Program-made: the position numbers and the translations under genes
Source of the DNA: Dehalococcoidia bacterium
GTDB lineage: Bacteria > Chloroflexota > Dehalococcoidia > Lucifugimonadales > UBA3495
Direction of reading: 5' to 3'
Assembly (NCBI GenBank): GCA_041485445.1
Contig: JBGPJN010000002.1
Location: forward strand, 1-47,030
Length of the DNA: 47,030 bases
The notes under the pieces: model-generated
What the model saw: the letters and a program-made list of their open reading frames with translations, nothing else
What the model was told of the DNA's origin: nothing
Database searches by the model: none
Part shown: positions 7,694 to 44,516 of the stretch, one piece after another
How the letters are laid out: each line of letters begins with the position of its first letter
Numbering within the stretch: position 1 is the first letter of the stretch

Positions 7694-7790
7694 CCACGGG
7701 CGCGGTGGCATGCCCTGCGGAGCTTGGCGCAAGCATCGACACTGGTTGGGGGGTTTTCGCCAACCACGGCCAGCGAACTGGCCAGGCCCC

Positions 7791-8480
7791 CTATACCTGG
7801 GCGGGCAGGCGGTCCCCGGACTGGTAGCTGGTCCACGTTCCGTCGCGGTACACCACCACCCGGCCCACGCCCACCACCCGCCAGCGGCCGGGGCGTCCCA
7901 GACAGCCGGTGCGGGCGTCAATACCCAGCACCGTCAGGCCGGCGGGCGACTGCAATTGGAGCTGCCGGGCGGTCTCCGCGGGGTCCTTGTCTTCGTGGTG
8001 GGGCAGCACCGCCAACCCGGGGACTATGCCCAGCCCCTTCACCCAGCCGCCTTGCTGGGGGCGGCGCATCTGTTCCCCCATGACCATGGCGCCGGCGCTG
8101 GAGCCGGCCAGCACTGTTCCGTTGTCCAATGCCTGCCGCAGCGCCTGGAGCAGCAGGGAGCCCTTTAGCGTCTCCAGCAGATAGTCGGGGCTGCCGCCGG
8201 CAAAGTAGATGACCCCGGCCCCAATCACCGTCTGGCACAACGCCGGGTCGTCCGCCTTGGCGCGGTCCAGCACCATTAGGGGGTTGGCGTCCCCCCCCAG
8301 GCTGTTGAAGTGGCGTACCCCATGCTCCGCAGAGTCAACCGGCGTGTACCAAGCAGCCGCCGTGGGGACCACCAGCACCCGGGCCGGGTTCTGGCCGCTG
8401 GCGCGCAGAATCTCCCGGTCCATCCCCTCGCACCCCACCCGAAACTCGTTGCCGCCCACCAGGGCGATGTCACCTGCCAT
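7791..8480 (-). CDS. Peptidase S51 / cyanophycinase-like (class I glutamine amidotransferase-like fold)
   Basis: VIYFAGGSPDYLLETL and LAGSSAGAMVMG (nucleophile elbow) are typical of the S51 family. Confidence 0.72.
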   Translation of the reverse strand: MAGDIALVGGNEFRVGCEGMDREILRASGQNPARVLVVPTAAAWYTPVDSAEHGVRHFNSLGGDANPLMVLDRAKADDPALCQTVIGAGVIYFAGGSPDYLLETLKGSLLLQALRQALDNGTVLAGSSAGAMVMGEQMRRPQQGGWVKGLGIVPGLAVLPHHEDKDPAETARQLQLQSPAGLTVLGIDARTGCLGRPGRWRVVGVGRVVVYRDGTWTSYQSGDRLPAQV

Positions 8481-8659
8481 TGAAGCACCTCACGGCCCAC
8501 GGGTACCGGTGTGGTAAGGCCCAGGTCATTCTAGCAGAACCCAGTGGCCTGGAAGCGTCCCCTGCCCGCGCATTGACCCGGCCCCAGGCCGGGGCTAGAA
8601 TGCTAGCATCTTCCCGAAGCCGCCGGCAACGGTTGGCGACGGAATTTCAAGGGGGCGCG

Positions 8660-9070
8660 ATGTTCACGTCGGTGCATCATGTACACTATGTGGTCCGCAA
8701 CCGGGACGCCATGGTGGCCTACATTGAGAAAAACTTTGGCCTCAAGCCCATCAACCAGGAGGTCCACCCCGGTCGTGGCAAGGATGCCATGTACAAGGTG
8801 GGCACCACCCTCATCGAGCTGACCGAGCCGCTGGACCCCAACTCGCCCATGGCCAAGCAGCTGGCCGCCAGCGGTCCGGGCGTGTGGCACGTGGCCTGGC
8901 GGGTGCCCAGCGTGCGCCAGGCGGCCAAGGAGTTGGCCGCCAAGGGCAACAAACTGCGGGGGGAGGGCGGACTGACCCAGAGCCCGCGGGGGTACACCAC
9001 GGTGAACATCGACCAGGCCAGCTCCCTGGGCGTCTGGTTCCAGTTGGCGCAGGGCGCCGCCAAGGAGTAA
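8660..9070 (+). CDS. VOC (glyoxalase/bleomycin-resistance/dioxygenase) family protein, methylmalonyl-CoA-epimerase-like
   Basis: MFTSVHHVHYVVRNRDAMVAYIEKNFG...GPGVWHVAWRV. Start at ATG 8660 inside track ORF 8480-9070. Confidence 0.78.
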   Translation: MFTSVHHVHYVVRNRDAMVAYIEKNFGLKPINQEVHPGRGKDAMYKVGTTLIELTEPLDPNSPMAKQLAASGPGVWHVAWRVPSVRQAAKELAAKGNKLRGEGGLTQSPRGYTTVNIDQASSLGVWFQLAQGAAKE

Positions 9071-9148
9071 GGGAAGGATGACCCTCGCCGCTGCCCGCGT
9101 CCCGCTCTGGCGGGGCGGCCAAGGGCAACATTGCCAAGGGCAACATTG

Positions 9149-10828: not shown

Positions 10829-10855
10829 ACCCCGGCGGTCCCCCCGCCTCCCTGC

Positions 10856-10886
10856 GTCGCCTGCTTTGTGCAGGCGACTTCTGTTT
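10856..10886 (+). terminator. Intrinsic terminator after argS
   Basis: GTCGCCTGC-TTTGT-GCAGGCGAC (9-bp stem) followed by TTCTGTTTA. Confidence 0.6.
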
Positions 10887-11006
10887 ATAGCCGCTTCCCG
10901 ATACCTCGCGCCGTGCAAGGTTTCACGGACTATAACCTGCACTTATAGCTGCCATAATGCTTTTTACGATAGACGTAACTGAATGGCTGATATAAGTAAA
11001 AAAGTA

Positions 11007-27112: not shown

Positions 27113-27204
27113 TGGCGGAGAGGGCGGGATTCGAACCCGCGAGAGACTTGTGAGCCCCTACACGATTTCCAGTCGTGCCCGTTCGACCACTCCGGCACCT
27201 CTCC
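27113..27204 (-). tRNA. tRNA-Ser (anticodon GGA), CCA encoded
   Basis: The minus strand reads GGAGAGG-TG-CCGGAGTGGTCGAACGGG-CACGA-CTGGAAA-TCGTG-long variable arm-GCGGG-TTCGAAT-CCCGC-CCTCTCC-G-CCA. This gives a 7-bp acceptor stem, a canonical T arm and a class II variable arm. Confidence 0.9.
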
Positions 27205-32824: not shown

Positions 32825-35251
32825 TCACTGCCGGTCCTTGGGCGAAGCCGCCGCCACCGATGCCGCGACGCGGACCGCATCGAACAGCGCCCCTTCACTG
32901 AGCTTGCCAGCCTCAACCCCGGGACCTGACAGCCATCCGAAGGCGGTATCGGCAATCTGTTCGCCCAGCTTCCGGTACGCCTCGAACTGGGCTTCGTCGA
33001 AAAACTGGTCCATGGTGAGGTGATTGGGAAAGGCAGGCTCCCGACGGTGGTAGGCTTCCAGGTCCGGCGCGGTGTCTTTGGCGGTGAGCACCGCCTTGAT
33101 GTAAACCAGGACGCCGCACAGGCCCTCCTTCGCCATCGTACCGCCGGCAGCTTTGGCCGCTGGGTATTGGATCTTGCCTGCCACAAAGCCGGAAGCTGGA
33201 CGGGTCTCCCCTTCACCGGCCAGCAGCGGCGTCAGATCAATCTGGATATCCACACCAAAGTCAACCCGCACCAGGTGGCATACCTCGCCCAGTGTGCTGA
33301 ACTGGGGGTCTTGGCCGGCAGGCTCGCCGGAGCCGTCCACCGCAATGATATACCGGCAGCCCCGCCGGACCAGCTCATAAATCCCCAGGGTTTCGAAGTG
33401 CCCCCCGTCGCTCAGGTAGATAAAGGGGTCCTGGGGCCGGGCCACGGCGAACAGCTCCCGCAGGTAGTAGAGCCAGAGGGCGTACCGGTCCGGCGCCATC
33501 CGGCGGCGCAGACTCCGCGACGCCGGTTCGTAGAGCCGCGGATTGGGGAACCATTGACCCAACCGGACATTGAGCAGGGTCAAGAGGATGGACGTGGATG
33601 GGTTGGTGTAGGAGCCCATGTTGGGGCTGACCGCCGCCCCGGAGATGGACATGGCGGCGCCCAGGGTCAGCCAGGGATACGCCTCGGTCCGCACAAAGCC
33701 GGTGTCCACAGAGCCGGAGTACAGACAGGACAGACCGAAGGAGGCCGCCTTGCGCTGCAGACCGCGGCCCTGGACGGCGCCGTCGTCGCTGCTGCCCATC
33801 ATGTTGAGACAGGTGGTGACGATATGGTAGGGCCCAACGGGAGTCCGGTCCTGGGCGGGAAGGCTCTCCGAGGCGTCGAACCTCCTGGCCATCTCCCCCA
33901 GTCTCCGCCGCAGCCGCCGCATCCCCGGCAGCCTGGCGCCGGCGCCGCGGGGGGTGTCCGCCTGCAGGCGCGCCAGCGGGAAGTCGGCCCCGGCGCCCAG
34001 GTCCGCGTTGGCGCCGGGCGTCCGCATAATGTAAGCCTGGCCCAGGCGGTGCCGGTAGATGGAGTGCAGCGACACCCAGTTCATCAACCGCACCATTGAC
34101 TGGGACGACCTATGCGCCTCGGCCAAGACGACCGCCACGCCAGCCAGCGCCAGCAGCGCCAGCACGATGGACGTATCCCGGGGGCTGAGGTAGTCCAGCC
34201 CGACAAAACCCAGGGCGATGCCGGCGCCCAGGACCAAGTAGCCACCCACCTTGAAAGGGACCTGGAGGGCCCGGTCCACCCAGCGGACCCTGGCCGAAGC
34301 CCCGCTGCGCCCGCGCTCCACCTCCCCCAGGCTGGTGAATGCCCAGCGGGACAAGGCCAACACCCCGGCTAGTCCACCGCCAAAGCCCATGGCCAGGGAC
34401 TGGAAGGCCAGGTGGGACAGGTACACCGCCGACACAAATCCAGCCCACAGGGCACCCACTGCCACGCCGCCAATGAGCCACGACTGCGCGGTGTGGACCC
34501 AGCCGGACGAATGGGTGGAACGCCAGAAAACCACCAACACCACGGAGATCAACAGCGCCGACCCGGCGAGCCCGGCCGCCGGCCACACCACCCAGGGCGT
34601 GGTTAAAGGATGCGCCCGGTTCCAGACCTCGCCCGGAATGAGGGTCAGGGCCACCAGCACCAGGACGAAGGGCATTGTTACCAGGGCCAGATTTATGACC
34701 ATCCGGACCGCCACGTCCAGCACCGTCTGCCAGGTGAGGGGATCGAGGGGCCCGAACCGCGGCGCTAGGTAGTTGCTGTGCCGCCGTAGGTGCCGCACCG
34801 GGCGCGGCTCCGGCCAGCGGCTGCCCAAGAGGAACCCGTCCTTGGACAGAGGGTGCGGCGCCGTGCTGCCGGCGGGGTCGGTCCGGAGCCCCGCGGGGGA
34901 CCGGTGATGCAGCAAGGAGCTGATGGCCGAGCCAAGGTAGCCGCCCCCAGATACGGTGGAGAGATAGTCCACTCGCTCCAGCACGCCGTGCTTGGCCAGG
35001 GATTGGCAGACCCCCAGGGAGAGAGTCGCCGAGCGGATGCCCCCGCCGGAGAGCGCCAGCCCCACGAATTCGTTGGCGGGGTCCGGCCACTGGGGATTCT
35101 TGATGGGATGGCCGTCCCCGGCCGCCTGATCACGCCACTTGGGAGTGCGGGCTACCCACTGCTTGATCTCCTGCCGGAACACCTCGTGGAACTGGTCTCC
35201 ACTGATGTAGGTGCCAGGGCTGCCCGAGCCGGAGGTCGGGACTGAATTCAT
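32825..35251 (-). CDS. Patatin-like phospholipase with an internal polytopic membrane insertion
   Basis: Oxyanion block LSGGGIRS, nucleophile block STVSGGGYLG, then about 6 hydrophobic helices (roughly aa 180-400), then SGAAVSP and the catalytic Asp block YLSDGGHFETLG. AGGAGG lies 9 nt before the ATG. Confidence 0.8.
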   Translation of the reverse strand: MNSVPTSGSGSPGTYISGDQFHEVFRQEIKQWVARTPKWRDQAAGDGHPIKNPQWPDPANEFVGLALSGGGIRSATLSLGVCQSLAKHGVLERVDYLSTVSGGGYLGSAISSLLHHRSPAGLRTDPAGSTAPHPLSKDGFLLGSRWPEPRPVRHLRRHSNYLAPRFGPLDPLTWQTVLDVAVRMVINLALVTMPFVLVLVALTLIPGEVWNRAHPLTTPWVVWPAAGLAGSALLISVVLVVFWRSTHSSGWVHTAQSWLIGGVAVGALWAGFVSAVYLSHLAFQSLAMGFGGGLAGVLALSRWAFTSLGEVERGRSGASARVRWVDRALQVPFKVGGYLVLGAGIALGFVGLDYLSPRDTSIVLALLALAGVAVVLAEAHRSSQSMVRLMNWVSLHSIYRHRLGQAYIMRTPGANADLGAGADFPLARLQADTPRGAGARLPGMRRLRRRLGEMARRFDASESLPAQDRTPVGPYHIVTTCLNMMGSSDDGAVQGRGLQRKAASFGLSCLYSGSVDTGFVRTEAYPWLTLGAAMSISGAAVSPNMGSYTNPSTSILLTLLNVRLGQWFPNPRLYEPASRSLRRRMAPDRYALWLYYLRELFAVARPQDPFIYLSDGGHFETLGIYELVRRGCRYIIAVDGSGEPAGQDPQFSTLGEVCHLVRVDFGVDIQIDLTPLLAGEGETRPASGFVAGKIQYPAAKAAGGTMAKEGLCGVLVYIKAVLTAKDTAPDLEAYHRREPAFPNHLTMDQFFDEAQFEAYRKLGEQIADTAFGWLSGPGVEAGKLSEGALFDAVRVAASVAAASPKDRQ

Positions 35252-35437
35252 ACAAGCGGCCTCCTGCCGGCCAATCAGGGCGCCCTGGAACGTCTGACCA
35301 GATTAGTGCCCTCGGCTCCACGGCGCTATAGAACTGGGGTCACGGTGGGTCTCCCCGTGGCGGCCCCCGCCGCGGGGGCGGGACATCGCGATGTGGAACA
35401 TATAGACCCTTGCATAATATCTTGAACCGTGGCGGAC

Positions 35438-35483
35438 GAAATCCCCCCAACCCCCCTTTGCGAAAGGGGGGCAAGGGTGGAGG
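35438..35483. repeat. C6/G6 nested palindrome unit
   Basis: GAAATCCCCCC-AA-CCCCCC-TTTGCGAAA-GGGGGG-CAAGGGTGGAGG, with a perfect inner stem at 35451-35471. Confidence 0.6.
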
Positions 35484-35543
35484 CCCGCCGCAAGCCCCTT
35501 CCAACCGGATTAGCTACTTATACCAGAGTCGTTAGCAGGCGGG

Positions 35544-36194
35544 TCAGGCCACCGGGCTGGGGCGGGACTGACCGGCCCGGCGCCACAGGGCGCATCCCAG
35601 CCAGACCAGCCCGGACCCAAACACCACTGCGCCGATCACCCGGACCACCCACGGCACTGGGCCCACGGGGTGCACCGGCACACTGAACAGCACGATGCCG
35701 GCCATCAACAGCGCCAGTCCCCAGCGGGGCAGGGCGCCGGCCCGCAGCGCCATCGCGCCGAAGAGCAGGTAGCCCAACACCATGAAGATGTAGGGGGCCA
35801 TGGTGACCCCGGAGGTGAGAGGGTGGTTGAACATGGGCCCCCCAGGCTCCACAAAGCTGGGGTCGTGCCCAGCGATGACCGGCCAGATGTAGGCGGTGAT
35901 CAATCCGGTGCCCACGAACATGGCCGTGCCGATGAAGGCCAGCACGAAGCCCGTCAGTCCCAGCCAGCCCGTGGCTTCACGCTGGGAGGAGTACAGGCCC
36001 CCCAAGCCCAGCAGAGTGAATAGCGCACCCAGGAAGTGGAAGCTGTGGGCGGCCACCCACACCGGCCTCACGGCCACCGGGCCTTCCAGCTGGTCAAAGG
36101 GGTGCAGCAGCATGAAGATGGCGAAAAATACGCCCCCCAGCGCCAGGGCCACGCCGCTCCACCGGACTACGGTGGTCTGCGAAACACTCTTCAA
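35544..36194 (-). CDS. Hypothetical integral membrane protein (about 6 TM)
   Basis: 216-aa hydrophobic ORF with a TTG start and GGAGG 8 nt upstream. It lies 19 nt after the dioxygenase stop. No family recognised. Confidence 0.55.
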   Translation of the reverse strand: MKSVSQTTVVRWSGVALALGGVFFAIFMLLHPFDQLEGPVAVRPVWVAAHSFHFLGALFTLLGLGGLYSSQREATGWLGLTGFVLAFIGTAMFVGTGLITAYIWPVIAGHDPSFVEPGGPMFNHPLTSGVTMAPYIFMVLGYLLFGAMALRAGALPRWGLALLMAGIVLFSVPVHPVGPVPWVVRVIGAVVFGSGLVWLGCALWRRAGQSRPSPVA

Positions 36195-36213
36195 CGTGAT
36201 GGCCTCCCGCGCC

Positions 36214-38019
36214 TCAACGCGCCTTCCGCGGCCATGGCGCGAAGGCGTTGTTAACCTGCCCCAGGAAGGGCGCCAGGCTGGGGTAGTGCCGCAGCAGGAC
36301 GGTGGACATGGTGTTGTTGTCGATCCAGTCCATGCCCAGCTTGGTGTACACCGCCGGTGTGTAGTCGGTGGTGAAGAACCGGTCGCTCTTCAGCCGCCGG
36401 GATGCCATCAGCACGAAGATGCGGAAGGCGGTGTCGCTGAACCCAAACCCCCGGGGCGTGGGCTCGGCATACATGCCCACCATGGTGTCCACCCGGTCCA
36501 CGTCGTTGTCGTAGACCTCCCGCAGTTCCTCCGCCCAAACGCGGTTCTTGGTCAGCTGCTCAAAGCTCTTGACCCGCGGCTTGTGCAGGAGCTGCCGGAA
36601 CTGGTTGTAGCGGGGCACCCCGCGCTCCCGGTCCCGCAACACGTCCACCGCGGCCAGGTCCACCAGGGCGCCGGTGGGCTGCTTCAGCTGCCGCAGGAAG
36701 CGGGGGAAGTTGTGCAGGGTGACCGCGCCCGGATTGGAACTGCCCAGGGAGTAGAATAGGTCCGGCATGGCGATCTGGGACTGCAACTTCCGGACGTTCC
36801 TCCCCTCCACATCTGGAAAGGTCTGGTCCAGGAGGGAACGGTCCCCATCCAGTGAGCGGAAATTGAAATCGTCCGGGATCAGGGGGTGCAGCCGGTAGAC
36901 TGCAGTGAACTCCTCGGTCATGGCGTAGGGCGCCCCGTGGTGCGCAGTGAGCGAGCCGGGAATGCCGCCGAGGAAATCGCTGCGGCCCAGCCGGCCAAAG
37001 CCCCGGTGGAACCGTTCCCCCATCAAGCCCCACCAGTTGCCCCGCATGGCGAAGCGCAGGGTGGGTTGGGCGAGAATGCCGGGGGTCCACTCCACCGTGT
37101 GGATCTTGGCCATCAACGCCCCGTTGATGAGCCGGGCGCGGTCAAACACCTGGTCGTCGGACCAGTCGGGGTACTCGGCGGCCAGGCGGTCGCAGATGGC
37201 GTTATGCTCCTTGGTGAACAGGGTGTGCAGCAGGCTCAGGCCCACCCACCAGTTGTCGTTGATGCCGGTGCGGTCGGTGCCGGTCTTGGGGTCCAGCGGC
37301 AGCAGCCCGTCGGCGCCCACGATGAGCTTGCCCTTGTCCCCCGACCGCAGGCTGGCCTGGGCCTCCGCGGTGTTGCCGTAGATCTGGGACGCGTCCCACC
37401 AGTGCACCGAGGTGTTGATGGAAGTGGGAGGAAGGCCCCGGTCCTTCCCCTCCGGCGCGTAGGTTGGGTCCCGCCGGGTGCGTCCGATGCGCATGGGGCG
37501 TTCCGGCCACGGGTCGGCCTGGTCCAGGGGCAGCTCCCAGGGGTTCTCCGGCTCCGGCATGCCGTGATTGAACCAGTCGTGGACCTGGAACTGGATCCAG
37601 GCCGCGGCCAGCACGTTCAGGGAGGTGGCGGGGATAAAGGTGTCCCGGGCCAGCAATCGGGCGCTGACGGTGCGGGGATTGGGCGTAAGGAGGGCGGCGG
37701 GCGCGTCCGGGAATCCGAACTTCAGCGGAACGTTGCGGGCGAACCTCGTCCCAACGCTGCCCATCGTGGGGTACTTCAGGTCGTTTAGGGTTCCGTCCAC
37801 GGTGCGGGCGGTGCGATATCGCTGCTGCTCGGCGGTAAGCTCCGGACCGGGGGTGGACATCGTACCGGTGGTGTCGTGGAGGTTCCGCTGCCGCAGGGTG
37901 TCGCGGATGGCCACCAGGTTCAGCACCGCCAAGGGCTTGGGCAGTCGGTACCACGGCACCACCCGGTTGATGCCGCTGAAGGTCTTGATGAGCAGCCAGG
38001 ATAAGGGCGATCCAGCCAT
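36214..38019 (-). CDS. Haem peroxidase-cyclooxygenase superfamily protein, alpha-dioxygenase/fatty-acid dioxygenase-like
   Basis: Distal-His region AAAWIQFQVHDWFNHG, proximal-His region AKIHTVEWTPGIL, and the Tyr motif EEFTAVYRLHPLIPD, which matches the YR.H/YHWH catalytic-Tyr context of alpha-DOX and COX. Confidence 0.83.
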   Translation of the reverse strand: MAGSPLSWLLIKTFSGINRVVPWYRLPKPLAVLNLVAIRDTLRQRNLHDTTGTMSTPGPELTAEQQRYRTARTVDGTLNDLKYPTMGSVGTRFARNVPLKFGFPDAPAALLTPNPRTVSARLLARDTFIPATSLNVLAAAWIQFQVHDWFNHGMPEPENPWELPLDQADPWPERPMRIGRTRRDPTYAPEGKDRGLPPTSINTSVHWWDASQIYGNTAEAQASLRSGDKGKLIVGADGLLPLDPKTGTDRTGINDNWWVGLSLLHTLFTKEHNAICDRLAAEYPDWSDDQVFDRARLINGALMAKIHTVEWTPGILAQPTLRFAMRGNWWGLMGERFHRGFGRLGRSDFLGGIPGSLTAHHGAPYAMTEEFTAVYRLHPLIPDDFNFRSLDGDRSLLDQTFPDVEGRNVRKLQSQIAMPDLFYSLGSSNPGAVTLHNFPRFLRQLKQPTGALVDLAAVDVLRDRERGVPRYNQFRQLLHKPRVKSFEQLTKNRVWAEELREVYDNDVDRVDTMVGMYAEPTPRGFGFSDTAFRIFVLMASRRLKSDRFFTTDYTPAVYTKLGMDWIDNNTMSTVLLRHYPSLAPFLGQVNNAFAPWPRKAR

Positions 38020-38035
38020 GCCAGAATCTCCTTCC

Positions 38036-39493
38036 CTACTGGGTCTTCAAATACTCCAAGATGGCTTCCTTCTCCTCGGTAGCCAGGTTGGTGCCATAGG
38101 TGTGGCCGCCGTTGCTGTTGCCCCTGGCGGTGGTGTCGTACCGCCAGCCCAGGCGCTCGGCTTCCGCGCCGGCGGACTGGAAGCCCACGTCGGCGAAGTT
38201 ATAGACCGGGTAGCCCCGATAGAAAGCCTTCGGGCGCTCTTCCGGGGGCTTGAGCAGGTCCCGCAGGGTGGGCACGGAGCCGTTGTGCAGGTAGGGCGCC
38301 CGCAGCCAGATGCCGTCCAGGGGCATGTTGGCGTAGCCGCCGGTGGTGCGGAAGTGGGAGAACTTCCATGGATAGCCGGTGCCCAGGGTGTTCATGCGCT
38401 GGGCCAGCTCCGGGCTGAAGGACCTCAGCCGCTCAGGGTCTGTGCCCACGGCGCTGAGGGGGGTGACCTGCCCCACGTCCCGCCCGTCCAGGGCATGGCA
38501 CTGGGCACAGTTGGTCTGGAACAGCCTCTCCCCGGCTTGGGCGCGGCCCTGGTCGATCCGCGCCGCCGGGAACCGGGGCGGCGGCAGGTCCAGGATCCAG
38601 TCCTCGATCCGCTTCATGCCTGCCAGGTCCAGGGATGCGGGCGACGCTCCGGCGCCAATGGCCGCGCTTTTGTTCCGCTCCTCCACTGAGTTGTTGTTGC
38701 CGTCCCAGTGCAGCCACATGTTGGCCCGCGCCCGCTGGTTCCACAGGGAGGGCAGGTCGGCGGTGCCCACCGTGTCGTCGCCCGCCAGGTCCATGCCCAG
38801 CAGCCGCTTGTAGGGGTTGAAGGTGTCCACGCGACCCGGTCCCAGGGGCGGGCGCGCCTCCATCCAAGAAAAATTGGCGGCCTCCTGGAGCAGGGCGTCT
38901 TTGGTGCGGGGAATGATTAGATAACGGTAGATCAGGCCGTCCAGCCAGGAGAAATCCGGGTTGGCCGCCCGGATGGCGGGCAGGAGGGTGCCGGCGGTGA
39001 AGCGCGGGTCCCGGGCGCTGGCAAAGAGGAACCCCAGGTAGCCCGCCAGGTTGAACTGGCCGGCCGGCATGCCCAGGACCAACTGGGCGGGCGCCCCGGG
39101 CGACTCCTGCACCAGGCTGCTGTGGCATAGGGAGCAGTTGAGCCCCACCATGGGGAACGGCTTCTCCCGGTAGCTGGTGCCGATGGGGCGCTGGTGGGCG
39201 GGGGACTCGTAGATGAAGCCCAGGCGGGCGTAGCCCTCCCCCGGCCCCGGGGGCAGGCGCTCCGGGAAGACGGTGGGCAGGACCCGCCAGATCCAGTAGG
39301 GGATGCCCGACCGGCCTTCCGCACCGATGGAGCCGTACTTGAAGTGGTCCTCGATGCTGGCGTGCAGCTCGGGCACGTTCCGCTGAAACCAGACCAGGGC
39401 GTAGATGCCGGCCACCACCGCCACCGCCAGCAGCCCGGCGAGGGCCGCCAGGGAGATTCTCCAGCCACGGGACAGCCTGCTCAGCTTCTTCAT
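38036..39493 (-). CDS. Membrane-anchored dihaem c-type cytochrome, cytochrome-c-peroxidase/MauG-like
   Basis: Two CxxCH motifs (NCSLCHS and NCAQCHA). The N-terminal anchor is ISLAALAGLLAVAVVAGIYAL. APYLHNGSVPTLRDLL and the C-terminal GHTYG...EKEAILEYLK are typical of the CCP/MauG family. Confidence 0.72.
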   Translation of the reverse strand: MKKLSRLSRGWRISLAALAGLLAVAVVAGIYALVWFQRNVPELHASIEDHFKYGSIGAEGRSGIPYWIWRVLPTVFPERLPPGPGEGYARLGFIYESPAHQRPIGTSYREKPFPMVGLNCSLCHSSLVQESPGAPAQLVLGMPAGQFNLAGYLGFLFASARDPRFTAGTLLPAIRAANPDFSWLDGLIYRYLIIPRTKDALLQEAANFSWMEARPPLGPGRVDTFNPYKRLLGMDLAGDDTVGTADLPSLWNQRARANMWLHWDGNNNSVEERNKSAAIGAGASPASLDLAGMKRIEDWILDLPPPRFPAARIDQGRAQAGERLFQTNCAQCHALDGRDVGQVTPLSAVGTDPERLRSFSPELAQRMNTLGTGYPWKFSHFRTTGGYANMPLDGIWLRAPYLHNGSVPTLRDLLKPPEERPKAFYRGYPVYNFADVGFQSAGAEAERLGWRYDTTARGNSNGGHTYGTNLATEEKEAILEYLKTQ

Positions 39494-39499
39494 AGGCTG

Positions 39500-40819
39500 C
39501 TACTTGGCCGGGAAGGGGGGCGGCTCAAACACCGACATGATCTCCCGCAGCATGGCTTCCCGAGACTCAAACCTGGACTCTTCGTAGCAGCCCATGGGGT
39601 TCTTCAAGGCGTTCACCGCGCACTTGTTGCAGTAGGTGCATGGCTTGGGCGCGCGGTTTTGCCCCTGGGCGAACAACTGCACCAGGTTGTTGTTGGCCAC
39701 CAGGGGGCGGGCGATGGACACCGCGTCGCAGTCGCCGGCGCCGATGGCCTGGCGGATCACCGACGCGGTCTGGAACCCGCCGGTGCACAGCACCGGTATC
39801 TTCACCGACTGCTTGATGACGCGGGCGTCCGCCAGGTTGATCCCCTCAATCTGCTTGCCCCGGTTGTGTACCCACCACCAGTGGAACAAGCTCCGGAAGG
39901 GCCACCGGCGGAACATGAAGTAGTTCCGAACTCCGTGGCTTCCGCTGGAGATCATGATGTCGTAGGTCTGGGCTACCTCCTTCATGGGCAGGTCGCCCGC
40001 GGGGTTGCGGGGGTGGGGGAACATGCTGCCGCCGGAGACGTGGATAGCGTCCACCCCGGCCTGCTCCAGCCACTGGCACACCTGCACCGACTCCTTCAGG
40101 ATGTTGCCCTTGCCCTCCCAGGGGATCACGGCGTTGTTGTAATCGGTGCCGTTGATCTTCATCTGCAGGTGGAACTCCCGGCCCACCTTGGCCCGGATGG
40201 CCTGCACCACCTCAAGAACAAAGCGGGCGCGGTTTTCCAGCGAGCCCCCGTACTGGTCCCGGCGGTCGTTGATGCCGGAGCTGAGGAACTGGGTGATTAG
40301 GTAGCCGTTGGCCCCGTGCAGCTCCACCCCGTCCAGGCCCGCCTGCTGGGCCCGCCGCGCCCCCTCAGCAAAGGCGTTGACGGTCTCCCCTATCTCCTGC
40401 ACGGTCATGGCCTGGCACGGGAACCCGTGCAGCGGCTCCTTCTTGCTGGTGCTGCTCAGCGCCGTGGCGAACTCCACGCCGCGGACGTCGCGCTGCCGTC
40501 CGGAGTGACTGAGCTGCAGGATGTACCGGCAGTCGTGCTGGTGGACCCGCTCTCCCAGGGCGCGCCAGAACGGGATGTACTCATCCCGGTGGATGGTGGC
40601 GTAGTTGGGCATAATGCGGCCCCGGATGGTCACCGGCACGAAGGACGAGATGATGGCGCCCACGCCGCCCTGGGCGAACTTGGCTTCCCAGTTGATGCGC
40701 GCCTGGTTGCCCGAGCCGTCGTAGTTGTCGAAGCGGCCCGAGATGTTGGACCGGAACACCCGGTTCTTGACGGTGAGGTTCCGGAACTTCAGCGGCTCAA
40801 AAATGACGTCGGTAGACAC
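39500..40819 (-). CDS. NADH:flavin oxidoreductase, Old Yellow Enzyme / 2,4-dienoyl-CoA-reductase N-terminal-domain-like
   Basis: FEPLKFRNLTVKNRVFRSN...ILQLSHSGRQ...GLDGVELHGANGYLITQFLS, plus a C-terminal Cys cluster CTYCNKC...C resembling the FadH Fe-S motif. GTG start. Confidence 0.87.
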   Translation of the reverse strand: MSTDVIFEPLKFRNLTVKNRVFRSNISGRFDNYDGSGNQARINWEAKFAQGGVGAIISSFVPVTIRGRIMPNYATIHRDEYIPFWRALGERVHQHDCRYILQLSHSGRQRDVRGVEFATALSSTSKKEPLHGFPCQAMTVQEIGETVNAFAEGARRAQQAGLDGVELHGANGYLITQFLSSGINDRRDQYGGSLENRARFVLEVVQAIRAKVGREFHLQMKINGTDYNNAVIPWEGKGNILKESVQVCQWLEQAGVDAIHVSGGSMFPHPRNPAGDLPMKEVAQTYDIMISSGSHGVRNYFMFRRWPFRSLFHWWWVHNRGKQIEGINLADARVIKQSVKIPVLCTGGFQTASVIRQAIGAGDCDAVSIARPLVANNNLVQLFAQGQNRAPKPCTYCNKCAVNALKNPMGCYEESRFESREAMLREIMSVFEPPPFPAK

Positions 40820-40896
40820 GGCGATATCACCCTTGGCCCGTGAGAGTCACGCCAGTTCACCCCAATTTCCCTGGGATGTCACCCGAAGCGGGCCAC

Positions 40897-40926
40897 AGTC
40901 TAGCACCGGCGTCAAACCAGCGTCAA
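40897..40926 (-). promoter_or_regulatory. Promoter candidate for the OYE-cytochrome-dioxygenase operon
   Basis: The minus strand reads TTGACG-18 nt-TAGACT, about 75 nt upstream of the GTG start. Confidence 0.35.
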
Positions 40927-41094
40927 CTAACCGCTGTCATGTTGGCGATCCCGCAGGCGGCCGGTCCGGCGAGGGTTACCCGGTGGGGGGCAGCCTGAGG
41001 GGATGGAGCGGGACCGCGCCGAGGCGGCGGAGTTTCTGAACACGATGACTCTGGAAGGCAATTATCTCAATCGGTTGGAAGGTATTTCCGGCGC

Positions 41095-41142
41095 AAATCC
41101 CCCCAACCCCCCCTTTTTAAAAGGGGGGCGAAGGGGGGATTT
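41095..41142. repeat. C6/G6 nested palindrome unit (most complete copy)
   Basis: AAATCCCCCC-AA-CCCCCCC-TTTTTAAAA-GGGGGG-CGAA-GGGGGGATTT. The outer 10-bp and inner 6-bp stems are both perfect. Confidence 0.6.
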
Positions 41143-41204
41143 CGTCAGCCTCAGTTAAGAGATTTATGCAAGGCTCGGTAAGCAGCGGCGCGCCTGAGCA
41201 CTTT

Positions 41205-42410
41205 TCACACCCACGGGGTGCGCTTGGACCGCTCCTTCTCCGAGGTGTAGGTGGGCTGCCCCTGGCGCTCCAGGGCCTGGGACAACATCTCCTTGAACAG
41301 CCGGCGCTCCGGACCCCGGATCACCGCCTGCTCGTGGGACTCGGAGATGGCCACCGGGTAGCCCTGCCCCCGGCGGCACTGGTCCAGTATCAGGCTGTGC
41401 CCCAGGGCCAGCAACGCCTCGTCCTGGGCCACCCACTGGGGCACCTCCACCCGGCCCAGCTCTTCCCCGGTGTTCAGGTAGTAGAAGTACACCTGGTGCT
41501 CCCCATAGTGCTCCCGGGGCACGGAGGACGTGGTGCGGTAGATGGGAGACCGCCAGCCGGGGGGCAGCACCTCCTGGAACAGCTCCCGGTCCAGGATGCC
41601 GGTGGCGGCGCTGCAGGGCGCCAGGGCGGAGCGCCGGTTGCCGCAGGACTCCCGGCAGCGGCCCAGGTCGTGGGGGCAGAGGCAGCAGCGGACGGCGTTG
41701 ACCACCTCGGCGCTGCGGGGCAGGGAGACGTAGGCGGCCACCGTCACGGCGCGGGTGGCGGACAGCTCCCGCAGCTGTTCCAGGGAGGACAGCAGCTCCC
41801 CGATGATGGCGTCGCGCACAAAGGGCCGGTAGCCCTGCCCCGACAGCCCCCACAGCACCAGGGAGCCGTCCACCAGGGCCAGGGTGGGCAACCCGGCGGG
41901 CGCTTCCCGCACCACCTGCACCAGCCGAGCCAACTCCCGCACCGTGCGCACCAGCCCCAGCAGGGCGCCGGTGACGGTCTCTTCGTGGGCGGAGTTGGCC
42001 GGGTCGGTGAGGTAAAGGTCCGAGTCTGAGGACGCCAGTTGCGGCTGACTGAAGAGCTGGGCCGCGGGCCGCGCGCCGTAGGTCAGCACGCAGCCGCCCA
42101 GGTTCAGGAGGTAACAACTTATGGGCAGGTGGCGGTCCACGTCGATATGGGAGCCGTCCACCGCGGCCACGCACCAGTCGGCCGGCGTTGCCGAGGGCGC
42201 ATAGGCGCCCAGGAGGGTGTCCACCACCTGGGCCGCCAGGAAGGGACGGTCCGCCGCGTACCGGGTCTGCTCCACGGCGGTGCTGGCGCTGACCCGTCCG
42301 GCAGCCTCCACCAGGGCGGCCAGCCTGGCCCGGCGGTCCTCCCGGCGGTCACCCGCCTGCCGGGCCGCTTGGTCCAGCTGGAGCAGCGTTTCGCCCAGGT
42401 CAAGGGACAC
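41205..42410 (-). CDS. NurA-domain nuclease-like protein
   Basis: VAAVDGSHIDVD, TLALVDGSLVLWG and GQGYPVAISESHEQAVI match the NurA acidic and GYP motifs as I recall them. GTG start lies 6 nt after the selB stop. Confidence 0.65.
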   Translation of the reverse strand: MSLDLGETLLQLDQAARQAGDRREDRRARLAALVEAAGRVSASTAVEQTRYAADRPFLAAQVVDTLLGAYAPSATPADWCVAAVDGSHIDVDRHLPISCYLLNLGGCVLTYGARPAAQLFSQPQLASSDSDLYLTDPANSAHEETVTGALLGLVRTVRELARLVQVVREAPAGLPTLALVDGSLVLWGLSGQGYRPFVRDAIIGELLSSLEQLRELSATRAVTVAAYVSLPRSAEVVNAVRCCLCPHDLGRCRESCGNRRSALAPCSAATGILDRELFQEVLPPGWRSPIYRTTSSVPREHYGEHQVYFYYLNTGEELGRVEVPQWVAQDEALLALGHSLILDQCRRGQGYPVAISESHEQAVIRGPERRLFKEMLSQALERQGQPTYTSEKERSKRTPWV

Positions 42411-42416
42411 GGTGCG

Positions 42417-44282
42417 CTACCTCAGCACCCGTTCGTCGCCCATGCGACGGGTGACGCGCTGCTGGTCCAGGTGCTCCAGCAGGGGCAGGATGTACTTGCG
42501 GCTGGTGTTCAGCATGGTGCGGGCCTCCGCCACGGTGATGCGCCCGTTGGCCTTCAGGTGGGCCACGATCTTGTCCGAAATCTCCTGGTAAGCGCCGGCG
42601 GTGAACACCACCGACTCGTTGACCTTCACCACCTTGCCCTGGTCCACCAGGACGCCCAACAGCTCGGCGTCCAAGGGCAGGTCGGTGGGTGGCGAGTAGG
42701 GGTCCTGGGCCAGGGCGCTCAGGTAGGTGGCGGCCTGGCGCTCCAGGGCTGGGGTCAGGGCCACCTGATGGCTGGGCAGGCGCAGGTGCTGGCCTTCCTC
42801 CATCACCAATCCCTCCTGGGCGGCGCGGGCCAGCACCCGCAGGTACACCGGCTGGGCCAGGCCCAGGCGGCTGCGCAGCTCCTGGGAGGGCATGCCGCCC
42901 CGCAGCGGGTGCTGCCGGTGGTAGGCGGTCAGGTCGGTGAGGGTCTGGTCCCTGAGCCGGTTCCAACCCGCGCGGGAGTAGACCACGGCATCGGCCTCCG
43001 ACGCCAGGTCGCCCAGAGCCACCATGTCTCCGGCAGTGGCAAGCTGGGCGGCGCGCTGCCGCACCTCGGCCAAGGGCAGGTTGGCCCGCCGGGAGAGGGC
43101 CCCCAGGTCGCAAGGACCCCACTGGTCGGCCAGGCTGATGAGCACGTCCTCGCCGGTGCCCTGGTCCAGGGTCGTCAGCTGCGCTACCACGTCGGCCTGG
43201 TAGCGACGGTGTCGCCTCCGGGGATTGGGGTCCACCACCTGGCCGCCCCCCAGGGTGTCCTCGGCGGAGCGGAGGATGAAAAAGTCGCCCTTCACCACGG
43301 GCACCGGGTTCTCCAGCAGCAATTGCACCCACCCTTGGGCGCCCGCGGCCAGCTGGTCCACCTCCAGCAGCCGCACCCGCGCCGGGGTTTCGCTGGAGAA
43401 CAGGTGAAAGGTCACCCCCTCGTTGTGGCGCAGGGCATGGGGCGCGCTGCGCACCATGCGCAGCCGGGCGTCCACCCGCTGGGTGGCGCGCAGCCAGCCT
43501 GGGGTCGTCAGAATCTCGCCGCGCTGGATATCGGTGCGGGCCGCCCCGGACAGGTTCACCGCCAGGCGCACACCCGGCCCCGTGCGGTCAATCTTGCTCT
43601 GGTGGCTCTGCAGGCCGCGGACCCGGCAGGTCAGGCCCGAGGGCACCAGCTCCACCTCCTGGCCCACCTCCAGGCTGCCGTCAATCAGGGTGCCGGTGAC
43701 CACCGTGCCGAAGCCGGAGACGGAGAAGCAGCGGTCCACCGGCAGGCGGGGCCGGCCCAGGTCCCGGCGGGCGGTGGTCTGGTCCAGGATGCCGTCAATG
43801 GCCGCCTTCAGCTCCTCGATGCCGGCGCCGGTGTAAGACGACACCGCCAGCATGGGGCAGCCCTGAAAGGCGGTGCCGGCCAGGGTGTCTTCCACTTCGG
43901 CCTTCACCAGCTCCACCAGCTCGGCGTCCACCAGGTCGGCCTTGGTGATGACCACCAGGCAGCGGCCGATCTGGAGCAGGTCCAGAATGGCCAAATGCTC
44001 CCGGGTCTGGGGCATGACGCTCTCGTCCGCCGCCACGATGAGCAAGGCCAGGTCAATGGCCCCCACCCCGGCCAGCATGTTCTTGATGAACCGTTCGTGG
44101 CCGGGCACGTCAACGATGCTCACCTCCCGGCCGCTGGGCAGGGTCATCCAGGCAAAGCCCAGGTCAATGGTCATCTCCCGCTCCTTCTCCTCGGGGAGAC
44201 GGTCCGGGTCGATGTTGGTCAGGGCTTTGACCAGGGTGGACTTTCCGTGGTCCACGTGGCCGGAGGTTCCGATGACGTACAT
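42417..44282 (-). CDS. selB: Selenocysteine-specific translation elongation factor
   Basis: [47 protein letters not shown] and ITKADL form an EF-Tu-like GTPase. A C-terminal extension of about 270 aa with winged-helix-like repeats follows, which is typical of bacterial SelB. Total length 621 aa. Confidence 0.92.
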
Positions 44283-44391
44283 GGCGGGTGCCTTCGTTGG
44301 TTCGAATCGGGTTCAAGCACAAACGGGAACTGGCGACCGCTCCAGCATAGCACCCAGGGCGAGGGATGGGTAGGGCGAGGTGGGGGGAGGG

Positions 44392-44516
44392 CAGGGCTGT
44401 TTCATTTTCCCCAAAGGTAGGGGCAGACCTTTGTGTCTGCCCTACGGCTGAAGGGGCAGACCAGGGCGCACACGCAGGTGCGCCCCTACGGGCAGGCCGA
44501 AAATGAATCGGCCCTG
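44392..44516. repeat. MITE-like palindromic element, copy D
   Basis: Termini are CAGGGCTGTTTCATTTTC and GAAAATGAATCGGCCCTG. It shares an identical interior block of more than 30 nt with copy B (GCAGACCAGGGCGCACACGCAGGTGCGCCCCTA). Confidence 0.7.

Follow-up and report, generated by a model that had tools for sequence, protein, structure and literature searches.

The window analyzed here, a stretch of 47,030 nucleotides from a Dehalococcoidia bacterium (contig JBGPJN010000002.1), carries on its minus strand a run of five genes for an OYE-type flavin reductase, a diheme cytochrome c, a heme dioxygenase, a membrane protein and a patatin-like lipase, which raises the question whether these proteins share a pathway and, if so, what kind of lipid chemistry they perform. 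The first-pass annotation read them as a bacterial counterpart of the plant sequence of lipase, fatty-acid dioxygenase and OPR-type reductase. The analysis described below suggests, at about even chances, that the whole set is a conserved module for the oxidation and trimming of membrane lipids.

All five open reading frames occur exactly at the coordinates first noted, and the strand, the spacers and the promoter-like site are likewise as that annotation gave them. In the direction of transcription, the OYE gene (39500-40819, minus strand; 439 aa, GTG start) is followed on the same strand by the genes for the diheme cytochrome (38036-39493; 485 aa), the dioxygenase (36214-38019; 601 aa, the third of the four genes of the operon), the membrane protein (35544-36194; 216 aa, TTG start) and the patatin (32825-35251; 808 aa). 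The spacers, obtained from the coordinates and by direct reading, are 6, 16, 19 and 292 nt, respectively; the first junction reads TAG cagcct ATG and the second TAG ggaaggagattctggc ATG, with GGAAGGAG as the Shine-Dalgarno sequence, and GGGAGG precedes the TTG start of the membrane protein gene. Each of the five has many homologues, so all can be considered real genes rather than chance reading frames, and the first four form an operon-like, tightly packed unit. A sigma-70-like promoter candidate (40897-40926, read from 40926 to 40897 on the minus strand; TTGACG-18-TAGACT, TG-extended, a 9/12 match to the consensus only) precedes the OYE start by ~75 nt and is weak evidence because the 8.9 kb region contains three such sites against 0.9 expected. 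About 45 nt 3' of the membrane protein gene stop, a G+C-rich nested hairpin (35425-35500, minus strand; RNA fold -43.9 kcal/mol, z -2.3) forms a terminator-like end of the four-gene unit; the consensus terminator scan makes no call at this position because the U-run is short. The 21-mer core of this hairpin is found just twice in the window, and the second copy of the element (41080-41150, minus strand; -41.7 kcal/mol, z -4.1), which follows the NurA-domain gene on the upstream side at ~55 nt from its stop, delimits the gene block there. Given the strong hairpin (-44 kcal/mol) that separates it from the fourth gene, the patatin gene is probably transcribed separately.

The four family assignments made at first hold in the Pfam check, with refinements. 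The heme dioxygenase, initially placed with cyclooxygenases and alpha-dioxygenases alike, matches An_peroxidase (8e-111) and, over its full length, the rice and Arabidopsis alpha-dioxygenase (aDOX) structures (E 1e-117 to 1e-118); the E-value of 1e-13 for COX rules out the COX-like half of the label. Residues H147, H307, T312, F371, Y375, H378, F535 and R542 correspond to H157, H311, T316, F375, Y379, H382, F552 and R559 of the rice enzyme, so that none of the named residues for catalysis or carboxylate binding is changed, and the protein is accordingly predicted from its sequence to be a true fatty-acid alpha-dioxygenase. It contains no export signal. Published aDOXs work without a redox partner, none being needed in vitro, an observation that counts against a multienzyme module.

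The reductase (Oxidored_FMN, 9e-63) is indeed an OYE, structurally closest to OYEs of the YqjM type and to the FadH N-terminal domain; the reductase domain implied by a FadH-like label is absent, as the protein contains neither an NAD(P)H/FAD domain nor an export signal. Two motifs, HGANGY (168-173) and PCTYCNKC...C (394-414), are invariant or nearly so in 13 of 13 cluster-associated homologues, which also share a family-specific insert of about 55 residues (~270-325). We predict that this protein is an Fe-S-type ene-reductase with a C-terminal four-cysteine, [4Fe-4S]-type motif. In NCBIfam, BaiCD, the mycofactocin OYE and bilirubin reductase are the best partial matches, and none comes near its cut-off.

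For the diheme protein, the predicted membrane anchor, an apparently uncleaved N-terminal hydrophobic helix, and the two heme motifs (CSLCH124 and CAQCH333) stand as originally described, whereas the classical CCP/MauG identity does not: there is no match to the CCP_MauG Pfam model, and the structural match to MauG in Foldseek is marginal only. The protein matches RoxA-like_Cyt-c (1e-17) and Cytochrom_C and contains the MauG motif PYLH403NGSVP and the C-terminal His ligand motif NGGH464; RoxA (4b2n) is the only significant sequence relative in the PDB and also the best Foldseek match of the AF2 model (pLDDT 78; E 6e-8, probability 1.0, TMq 0.53). Thus, it is a compact, membrane-anchored c-type cytochrome similar to RoxA and RoxB, a dioxygenase lineage, and hydroperoxide reductase is just one option for its activity. 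The family (NCBIfam NF040606, 181.8 bits against a cut-off of 150) includes more than 7000 members, among them MAGs labelled Chloroflexota and Actinomycetota, and its NCBIfam subfamily is named 'di-heme cytochrome c peroxidase'. Being a c-type cytochrome, the protein must sit outside the cytoplasmic membrane; its position there, with aDOX and OYE devoid of export signals, is a further point against a shared module.

Membrane association, predicted or known from the family, extends to every protein of the cluster except OYE. The fourth gene encodes an integral membrane protein with six helices, the family of which is unannotated: it has no match in Pfam, NCBIfam or PADLOC, and its 170 homologues are all labelled 'hypothetical'. 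Its AF2 model is confident (pLDDT 92) and matches no PDB fold. Its homologues adjoin An_peroxidase genes in L004, L169 and L170; it is missing from most loci that combine OYE, the diheme protein and aDOX, which also weighs against the module. The patatin is split, as first proposed: Pfam Patatin covers only the 48 N-terminal residues 65-112 (9e-7; 29.7 bits against a cut-off of 27.7), and the motifs GGGIR69 and TVS101GG are followed by five TM-like helices (184-379) and then by D615GG, so the catalytic halves are genuinely separated by a five-helix membrane insert. Homologues with this architecture are located near aDOX in L014, L024, L037, L043, L075, L091 and L146.

Conservation of the neighborhood, on which the first-pass annotation had staked its proposal, is borne out by two surveys. 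Among the 80 most similar aDOX loci, at the species level and with crude ORF calling, the trio of OYE, diheme protein and aDOX is present in 10, from six phyla, in varying order and orientation: SAR202 (L004), Nostoc (L009), Coleofasciculus (L010), Verrucomicrobiae (L012), Dehalococcoidia (L014), Acaryochloris marina (L027), Sorangium (L052), Xenococcaceae (L063) and Vicinamibacterales (L080 and L082); it is seen again in metagenome loci. The association is limited to one aDOX clade, suggestive of specialized coupling, and 67 of the 80 loci encode neither OYE nor the diheme protein. In the survey centered on the diheme gene (some of the metagenome contigs are possibly redundant), 20 long loci extend for 4 kb or more on either side of it, and of these OYE is present in all 20 and aDOX in seven; OYE lies directly upstream of the diheme gene in 26 of the 47 loci with enough upstream sequence, and such synteny is found also in L084 and L086, in the latter with a 4-nt gene overlap that, together with the 6 to 19 nt spacers in the window, indicates co-expression. 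Two of four individually sampled diheme genes stand alone, another count against the module. OYE and the diheme protein are therefore a near-constant core and aDOX a frequent accessory; because most aDOX loci lack the pair and about two thirds of the pair loci lack aDOX, the substrate of the pair need not be the aDOX product.

Patatin genes, of two different architectures, occur within 10 kb of aDOX in 14 of the 80 loci, five or six of these with the split architecture of the window. They are present in 13 of 66 long aDOX loci and in none of the 20 long diheme loci without aDOX (Fisher p=0.033), that is, patatin tracks aDOX rather than the OYE-diheme pair. The accessory genes of other loci (P450, SDR and a molybdenum-cofactor aldehyde oxidoreductase, the last encoded next to the cluster in seven metagenome loci as well as in L004 and L080) fit lipid or aldehyde chemistry.

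In the proposed module, the membrane-embedded patatin lipase, as its recurrent co-localization suggests, would free fatty acids from membrane lipids; aDOX would add O2 at C2, yielding a 2-hydroperoxy acid and then a one-carbon-shorter aldehyde and CO2, a step strongly favored by the fully conserved residues and the characterized cyanobacterial and plant relatives. At the outer face of the cytoplasmic membrane, the diheme enzyme would use O2 or peroxide to oxidize unsaturated lipid chains to alpha,beta-unsaturated carbonyls, the C=C bond of which the Fe-S OYE would then reduce; this is suggested by the hallmarks of RoxA in the diheme protein, by an OYE whose catalytic motif is intact and by the fact that the two genes almost always occur together. 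The extracytoplasmic location of one heme enzyme could be reconciled with its cytoplasmic partners since lipophilic intermediates can cross the bilayer. OYE and the diheme protein would be the core couple, with aDOX, patatin, P450, molybdenum aldehyde oxidoreductase and small membrane proteins as interchangeable accessories. Like the first-pass annotation, which knew of no such bacterial operon, we found no description of a cluster of OYE, diheme protein and aDOX in the open literature that could be searched; the module appears to be previously undescribed and, being recurrent, may give bacterial aDOXs their first physiological context.

The plant-style oxylipin pathway initially proposed, in which patatin releases fatty acids, aDOX forms 2-hydroperoxides, a CCP-type diheme protein reduces these to 2-hydroxy acids and OYE acts like OPR, with signaling or defense products, seems unlikely. 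Family chemistry, the NCBIfam subfamily name and the peroxide-using heme partners at other aDOX loci (DyP-like cl4 in nine loci, and P450s) are in its favor, and its lipase-to-dioxygenase leg agrees with the patatin-aDOX association. The core pair, near-constant and mostly found without aDOX, is not explained by this logic; moreover, the products of aDOX have no C2-C3 double bond for OYE to reduce, and the diheme protein has the hallmarks of RoxA/RoxB rather than of CCP/MauG and, unlike aDOX, is extracytoplasmic.

Those RoxA/RoxB hallmarks bring up catabolism of isoprenoid or methyl-branched lipids such as phytol, polyprenols or carotenoid fragments, a doubtful alternative. The RoxA-like enzyme would cleave or oxidize C=C bonds outside the cell, as RoxA and RoxB cleave polyisoprene to keto-aldehydes; OYE would saturate the resulting 3-methyl-2-enal, as in conversion of citral to citronellal; and aDOX would remove one carbon, bypassing the beta-methyl block to beta-oxidation. 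Alpha-oxidation serves the passage of 3-methyl branches, one cyanobacterial aDOX takes methyl-branched acids, and both the neighboring molybdenum aldehyde oxidoreductases and the distribution among chlorophyll-containing cyanobacteria and soil and aquatic degraders fit. Nevertheless, neither the window nor the loci show an isoprenoid-specific gene (e.g. prenyl-CoA carboxylase, atu/liu), the Rox enzymes are longer than the diheme protein by ~200 residues and are secreted, whereas it is membrane-anchored, and the association with patatin suggests acyl lipids.

It is similarly doubtful that two independent functions share the operon, with OYE and the diheme protein as a self-contained stress module detoxifying reactive electrophiles and peroxides that arise in lipid peroxidation, its link to aDOX and patatin being one of common regulation only, with no shared intermediates. 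OYEs are commonly stress-induced electrophile reductases, the pair occurs without aDOX in 13 of the 20 long loci, most aDOX genes lack the pair, and aDOX is self-sufficient in vitro. Against this reading stand the independent recurrence of the association in six phyla, where the gene order is rearranged, the indications of co-expression and the restriction to a single aDOX clade. That unrelated genes are adjacent by chance or that ORFs were mis-called, a reading with nothing in its favor beyond the weak promoter call, is most improbable, with hundreds to thousands of homologues for every ORF, and is effectively refuted by the conservation of the neighborhood across phyla in both surveys.

The membrane-lipid module can be compared with several known systems. 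The OYE shares the FMN TIM barrel followed by CxxCxxC...C with the Fe-S OYE-superfamily flavoproteins FadH (2,4-dienoyl-CoA reductase), trimethylamine dehydrogenase, BaiCD and bilirubin reductase but, unlike these, is devoid of the C-terminal FAD/NAD(P)H (or ADP) domain, retains the classical OYE1-type H-x-x-N-x-Y motif and contains the additional conserved insert. With RoxA and RoxB, diheme c-type dioxygenases, the window protein shares the two CxxCH motifs, the NGGH ligand motif, the only significant fold match and, with RoxB, an identical PYLHNGSVP; however, it has 485 aa compared to ~650-680, and the sequence similarity is mostly limited to the C-terminal 100 residues. Reports of Rox enzymes are confined to Gram-negative rubber degraders, whereas the present family is far wider and near-constantly paired with OYE, a pairing not reported for Rox enzymes.

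There is a precedent, the Pseudomonas aeruginosa oleate diol synthase (a diheme CCP-family 10S-dioxygenase/7,10-diol synthase, the system treated in PMC5155153), for periplasmic diheme proteins resembling cytochrome c peroxidase that act as fatty-acid dioxygenases or as hydroperoxide isomerases. As far as is known, such enzymes are of the classical CCP type, in contrast to the window protein without a CCP_MauG match. Nostoc punctiforme, according to PMC13049297 (citing Brash et al. 2014), employs a linoleate 10S-dioxygenase and a catalase-related hydroperoxide lyase, an earlier bacterial example of a fatty-acid dioxygenase from the COX superfamily acting in tandem with a neighboring heme enzyme. 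As described there, this dioxygenase belongs to another branch of the superfamily, with the central motif IMxxYIxxITP where the window aDOX has AKIHTVEWTP, and its partner is a catalase-related protein rather than a diheme cytochrome c and OYE. The closest relatives of the window enzyme are the plant and cyanobacterial aDOXs (rice and Arabidopsis, PDB 4kvj/4hhr; CsDOX, CalDOX and LepDOX), with which it shares full-length homology (E about 1e-118), the catalytic Tyr, both heme His, the carboxylate-binding His and Arg, the positioning Thr, both stacking Phe and a His-to-His spacing of 231 (230/232 in CalDOX and LepDOX); the papers on these enzymes mention no operon, gene cluster, genomic partner or bacterial physiological role, whereas the window gene sits in an operon.

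The five genes for which the first-pass annotation had proposed an oxylipin or lipid-peroxide pathway all lie on the minus strand, and re-reading of the open reading frames placed them exactly where they had been reported: an Old Yellow Enzyme (OYE) homologue (39500-40819), a dihaem cytochrome c (38036-39493), a haem dioxygenase (36214-38019), a membrane protein (35544-36194) and a patatin (32825-35251). The spacing had also been read correctly, with junctions of 6, 16 and 19 nt within the first four genes and a gap, earlier put at about 290 nt, of 292 nt in front of the patatin gene. The first junction reads TAG cagcct ATG; these six nucleotides leave no space for a separate ribosome-binding site, so translational coupling of the OYE and dihaem genes is plausible. 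The dioxygenase ATG is preceded by a GGAAGGAG Shine-Dalgarno sequence and the TTG start of the membrane protein gene by GGGAGG. The promoter suggested for the block, a TG-extended TTGACG-18-TAGACT matching 9 of 12 consensus positions, is present at 40926>40897 on the minus strand, but it is weak evidence, being one of 3 such sites in 8.9 kb against 0.9 expected. The GC content is uniform, about 0.65-0.70, over the block and its flanks.

The four-gene block is bracketed by a G-rich nested palindrome (core AAAGGGGGGTTGGGGGGATTT) that occurs in exactly 2 copies in 47 kb, compared to 0.01 expected. The hairpins, which were spotted by eye and by RNA folding, are both on the minus strand: copy 1 (41080-41150; -41.7 kcal/mol, z -4.1) starts about 55 nt past the stop of the NurA gene, and copy 2 (35425-35500; -43.9 kcal/mol, z -2.3) about 45 nt past the stop of the membrane protein gene. 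A consensus scan found no canonical intrinsic terminator with a U-run between the membrane protein and patatin genes; the palindrome copies look like terminators with short U-tracts that such a scan overlooks. On that reading, we infer a transcription unit of four genes, with the patatin gene probably started separately. Besides a terminator, the element may represent a REP-like repeat or a scar left by a mobile cassette. Both flanks consist of unrelated housekeeping genes: a NurA-domain gene and selB lie upstream, and a phosphonate-type ABC transporter lies downstream. There are no further lipid genes elsewhere in the window, which contains mostly ABC-transporter genes, together with selB, the NurA-domain gene, dnaJ and a few unrelated enzymes. 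The gene for the selenocysteine elongation factor SelB (42417-44282, minus strand) is overlain by a plus-strand ORF of 793 codons (42039-44420) that has no family match and is probably a shadow ORF; a 779-aa ORF at 8603-10942 (minus strand) is without a Pfam match. Searches with Rfam and ARAGORN yielded no known RNA elements in the intergenic regions, the sole match in the window being a tRNA-Ser (GGA) at 27113-27204 on the minus strand.

The haem dioxygenase had been assigned to the cyclooxygenase/alpha-dioxygenase type, and the second half of this assignment is the one that holds. The An_peroxidase family call is borne out (Pfam, 8e-111), and in a PDB sequence search residues 20-596 align end to end with the rice and Arabidopsis fatty-acid alpha-dioxygenases (aDOX; E 1e-117 to 1e-118); the next matches are lactoperoxidase (3e-25) and COX-1 (2e-13), the latter over 47 residues alone. 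The catalytic Tyr and proximal His (FTAVY375RLH378) and the distal His (WIQFQVH147DW) are invariant in a 12-sequence alignment. Each of the residues listed as defining the aDOX mechanism (PMC8720084) has a counterpart in the window protein: rice Y379, H382, H157, H311, R559, T316, F375 and F552 correspond to Y375, H378, H147, H307, R542, T312, F371 and F535, respectively, with the carboxylate-binding H307/R542, the positioning T312 and the stacking F371/F535 in the motifs AKIHTVEWT and FRIFVLMASRR. The His-to-His spacing of 231 residues compares with 230 in CalDOX and 232 in LepDOX, the characterised cyanobacterial enzymes. Identity as a Nostoc-type 10S-DOX or COX was rejected, given the aDOX motifs and an E-value gap of 100 orders of magnitude: where the Nostoc linoleate 10S-DOX has its central motif IMxxY305IxxITP (PMC13049297), the window enzyme has LMAKIHTVEWTPGIL. 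By lineage, therefore, the protein appears to be a bona fide fatty-acid alpha-dioxygenase, nearer to aDOX than to the other peroxidase-cyclooxygenase branches. Some close homologues (P0003, P0005) carry an N-terminal YtxH domain (PF12732).

The second gene had been described as a membrane-anchored dihaem cytochrome c of the CCP/MauG type. Two haem c sites (CSLCH124 and CAQCH333) and an apparent membrane anchor are indeed present, and the protein matches NCBIfam NF040606 'di-heme-cytochrome C peroxidase' (181.8 bits, E 3e-53, cut-off 150), but the Pfam CCP_MauG model gave no match at E<=0.01 and the MauG fold is not recovered. The Pfam family that matches is RoxA-like_Cyt-c. RoxA (4b2n) is the sole significant sequence relative in the PDB (4e-13, chiefly over the C-terminal 100 residues) and the only significant Foldseek match of the AF2 model (pLDDT 78; E 6e-8, probability 1.0, TMq 0.53, rmsd 8.8 A), followed by weaker matches to the hydrazine synthase gamma subunit (8e-3) and MauG (E 0.3-0.7, TM about 0.17). 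The tabulated hallmarks of rubber oxygenases are two CxxCH motifs, PY[FLM]HN[GS]SVP and the second His ligand of the C-terminal haem (Table 1 of PMC6311187); the MauG motif of the window protein, PYLH403NGSVP, is identical to the RoxB version, NGGH464 corresponds to the second His ligand of RoxA, and both, like the haem c sites, are invariant in an 18-sequence alignment. The rubber oxygenases are secreted proteins of about 70 kDa, with F317 and W302 (RoxA numbering) at the active haem; RoxA has an oxy-ferrous state and could not itself be produced in E. coli. At 485 aa, the window protein is about 200 residues shorter than the Rox enzymes, and the long hydrophobic helix at its N terminus (9-36) resembles a signal anchor more than a signal peptide that is cleaved off. 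Cytochrome c maturation places c-type haem domains outside the cytoplasmic membrane, so the globular part of this cytochrome must be located there. In two of the relatives' loci that combine OYE, dihaem and aDOX genes, those of a Dehalococcoidia MAG (L014, 12941-18291) and Acaryochloris marina (L027, 14237-17743), there are two paralogous RoxA-like genes, reminiscent of the RoxA/RoxB pairs of rubber degraders.

These comparisons bear on two alternative schemes. The plant-style oxylipin pathway of the first-pass annotation, with the dihaem protein as a peroxidase, agrees with the name of NF040606; that name, however, is an annotation rather than a demonstrated activity, and we consider the scheme unlikely. 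The second alternative is catabolism of isoprenoid or methyl-branched lipids, in which alpha-oxidation would bypass beta-methyl groups and the Rox-like enzyme would cleave C=C bonds. We consider this scheme unlikely as well. According to a review, homologues of RoxA have been reported in Gram-negative rubber degraders only (PMC6311187), whereas the RoxA-like dihaem family comprises >7000 proteins at E<=1e-5; its wide distribution beyond the known rubber degraders speaks against rubber, poly(cis-1,4-isoprene), as substrate.

OYE ene-reductases are recognised by an FMN TIM barrel, a His/Asn(His) pair for binding of the activating carbonyl and a Tyr that donates the proton (H-x-x-N/H-x-Y). The window protein belongs to this family as originally called (Oxidored_FMN, 9e-63, 213 bits); the classical H-x-x-N-x-Y motif is HGANGY168-173, maintained as H[GS]xxGY in 13/13 cluster homologues. 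The barrel is followed by PC394TYC397NKC400...C411Y, with all four Cys invariant in the same 13 proteins, a motif, here known from sequence, of the type that binds [4Fe-4S] in the FadH/TMADH class. Members of that class continue into a C-terminal FAD/NAD(P)H- or ADP-binding domain and reach about 640-730 aa, whereas the window protein ends at 439; the NCBIfam models for BaiCD, mycofactocin OYE and long bilirubin reductase match only over their first ~250 positions, far below the cut-offs. All 13 homologues also keep an insert of about 55 residues (around 270-325) that is specific to the family; its interpretation as an amphipathic membrane helix was discarded, the segment not being among those with the top hydrophobic moments. 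In the closest relative (SAR202, L001-L004), the OYE is split into two overlapping ORFs of 219 and 226 aa (6991-8303) in all assemblies returned, which is a frameshift, a pseudogene or a shared assembly error.

Lack of conservation of the neighbourhood in relatives had been named beforehand as an observation that would count against a functional link; the genomic context analysis revealed the opposite. We surveyed the 80 most similar aDOX loci on one-genome-per-species contigs, placing homologues of the window proteins by tblastn, and 80 metagenome loci whose dihaem protein is 49-62% identical to that of the window; both surveys, as sets of best-matching loci, are biased towards relatives of the window protein. 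OYE, dihaem and aDOX genes occur together in 10 of the 80 aDOX loci, from SAR202, Dehalococcoidia, Nostoc, Coleofasciculus, Acaryochloris marina MBIC11017, Xenococcaceae, a Verrucomicrobiae MAG, Sorangium and two Vicinamibacterales, and 3 more contain OYE and aDOX only. The partners belong to a specific subfamily, with 48-77% identity to the window proteins for OYE and 44-72% for the dihaem protein, and the best matches of four window proteins are from SAR202/Chloroflexota (62-77% identity). In a rough NJ tree, the association falls within one major aDOX clade (13 of ~36 members), which spans Chloroflexota, Cyanobacteria, Acidobacteriota, Verrucomicrobiota and Myxococcota, and is absent from a mostly actinobacterial clade. 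Gene order and orientation vary between phyla, a hallmark of selection for linkage rather than of shared ancestry of the block. Around the dihaem gene, OYE is found in all of 20 loci that extend 4 kb or more in each direction, and aDOX in 7/20; among loci with at least 1.6 kb upstream, OYE is present in 37/47 and lies directly upstream, on the same strand and within 250 nt, in 26/47. Four singly sampled dihaem genes comprised one OYE-dihaem-P450-An_peroxidase cluster, one OYE-dihaem pair with a 4-nt overlap and two solitary genes. The OYE-dihaem pair thus is a near-constant core, and aDOX a frequent but not obligatory accessory. We regard two independent stress functions that are only co-regulated as unlikely, and chance as hardly credible. 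Redundancy among the metagenome contigs is possible, for L151 and L153 resemble each other; locus ORFs were called naively, and high-GC shadow ORFs occur; the long ORF in L080 that suggested an OYE-aDOX fusion was dismissed as a frame artefact of this kind.

The recurrent accessories are a 4-TM protein of ~140 aa (cl19), P450s, an SDR and molybdenum aldehyde-oxidoreductase-like genes. The last of these are located ~1.1-1.4 kb downstream of the dihaem gene in L094, L096, L102, L105, L112, L114 and L122, and are also found in L004 (4096-6423) and L080 (13271-15895), the latter with an additional [2Fe-2S] small subunit; these hydroxylases are a plausible sink for the putative aldehyde products. 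P450 genes adjoin OYE-dihaem and An_peroxidase genes in L084 (8498-12228), L091, L012 (11867-13240) and L156, an adjacency that recalls the fungal DOX-CYP fusion enzymes; the L084 An_peroxidase carries N-terminal TPR repeats. A protein of ~310 aa (cl10), with no Pfam or PDB relative, is encoded directly downstream of aDOX in all five cyanobacterial loci (L009 3812-4741, L010 4839-5774, L027 11706-12668, L036, L063 5111-6031), in 3 of these (L009, L027, L063) between aDOX and OYE. The idea that cl10 and another aDOX neighbour, cl2, are hydroperoxide lyases related to mini-catalases was unsupported (no PDB match and E 0.28, respectively).

The patatin had been described as split, and so it is: the oxyanion motif GGGIR69 (GGGxR/K) and TVS101GG are separated from D615GG, which agrees with the catalytic Asp motif DG[GA], by five TM-like helices (184-379). 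The Pfam Patatin model, at 29.7 bits against a cut-off of 27.7, supports the family for the N-terminal part only, and TVS101GG has Thr in place of the first Gly of the nucleophile motif G-x-S-x-G. In 14/80 aDOX loci, a patatin-like gene is located no more than 10 kb from aDOX; five or six of the 14 are of the split type (L014, L024, L037, L043, L075, perhaps L028), and eight are classical proteins of ~330 aa, 3 of them encoded immediately downstream of aDOX. In an internal control, a patatin is present in 13/66 long aDOX-centred loci compared to 0/20 long dihaem loci without aDOX (Fisher p=0.033), and in 2/18 dihaem loci with aDOX. The patatin thus tracks aDOX rather than the OYE-dihaem pair, which supports a lipase-to-dioxygenase substrate relationship. 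A defence reading of the patatin and the cluster was rejected, as none of the five proteins matched a PADLOC model of known anti-phage systems, whether patatin- or TIR-containing.

The fourth gene encodes a membrane protein of 216 aa with six helices, whose small family (170 homologues) is unannotated. It has no match in Pfam, NCBIfam or PADLOC, and its model, although confident (pLDDT 92), has no structural relative among PDB entries. A role as haem b electron conduit between OYE and the dihaem protein is unsupported, with one near-invariant His (H31) and no fold match, and relationship to cl19, which occurs in other loci that combine OYE, dihaem and aDOX genes, was rejected for lack of BLAST similarity. 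Elsewhere, the family is found beside An_peroxidase genes (adjacent in L169, at 4.5 kb in L170). In L168 (9001-14235) and L169 (5210-12340), it occurs with cl2 (~400 aa), DyP-like cl4 (~490 aa) and cl9 (~424 aa), which are other recurrent aDOX neighbours. These associations define a second, uncharacterised gene network around An_peroxidase/aDOX genes; aDOX thus behaves as a hub with alternative partner sets, elements of two of which the window operon joins. In L170 (1021-17182), a 1008-aa An_peroxidase is surrounded by genes for TIR_2, CHASE2-TIR, Trypsin_2 and TPR-S, which resembles the setting of a conflict or defence island rather than one of lipid metabolism.

Altogether, the genes encode a complete aDOX catalytic apparatus, an OYE with ene-reductase and Cys4 motifs, a cytochrome with RoxA/RoxB hallmarks and a patatin catalytic dyad; the operon is tightly packed, and the linkage extends across phyla. 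We propose, at about even odds, a composite route of lipid oxidation. The patatin would release fatty acids from membrane lipids, and aDOX would convert these (Cn), with O2, to 2-hydroperoxides and on to Cn-1 aldehydes; on the outer face, the dihaem protein would produce an alpha,beta-unsaturated carbonyl from unsaturated lipid and O2 or peroxide, and the Fe-S OYE would saturate its C=C bond. The separate compartments of the enzymes are not prohibitive, since bilayers are readily crossed by free fatty acids, aldehydes and hydroperoxides. That the genes form a functionally linked module of lipid oxidation is better founded than the particular roles given to OYE and the dihaem protein.

A broader and more tentative possibility is that the [4Fe-4S]-OYE and the RoxA-like dihaem protein form a widespread two-compartment couple, with thousands of members in many phyla, for a type of bacterial lipid chemistry so far undescribed. 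On the outer face, lipids of the membrane or the environment would be oxidised by the haem enzyme at C=C or allylic positions, depending on O2 or peroxide; the enal or enone so formed would then be reduced inside by the Fe-S flavoprotein. If so, the recruitment of aDOX and a membrane-embedded patatin would represent the first physiological alpha-oxidation/oxylipin pathway in bacteria. SAR202-type organisms have been implicated in the turnover of recalcitrant organic matter, and from the chemistry of the pair a new route could emerge by which soil, freshwater and marine bacteria, these organisms included, oxidise lipids or isoprenoids. Potential biocatalysts could combine cofactor-independent C=C cleavage, ene-reduction and one-carbon shortening. 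Cultured carriers include Acaryochloris marina MBIC11017 (NC_009925.1, about 2.591-2.613 Mb), Nostoc sp. FACHB-152 and Sorangium sp. So ce1000.

To our knowledge, bacterial alpha-dioxygenases are known only as isolated biocatalysts. Neither the source of the residue list above (PMC8720084) nor a review (PMC9305512) speaks of an operon, of neighbouring genes or of a physiological role of aDOX in bacteria, and full-text searches of the open-access and bioRxiv literature brought up neither the aDOX-OYE-dihaem cluster nor the OYE-dihaem pair, although absence there is not proof. The cluster described here offers bacterial aDOX testable partners and a lipase as the source of substrate. Judging from the sequences and their contexts, a RoxA-like family of more than 7000 members seems almost always to be paired with an Fe-S OYE that has no reductase domain. 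The cluster joins enzyme families that are each known in a conserved combination, so far undescribed, around an uncharacterised core pair.
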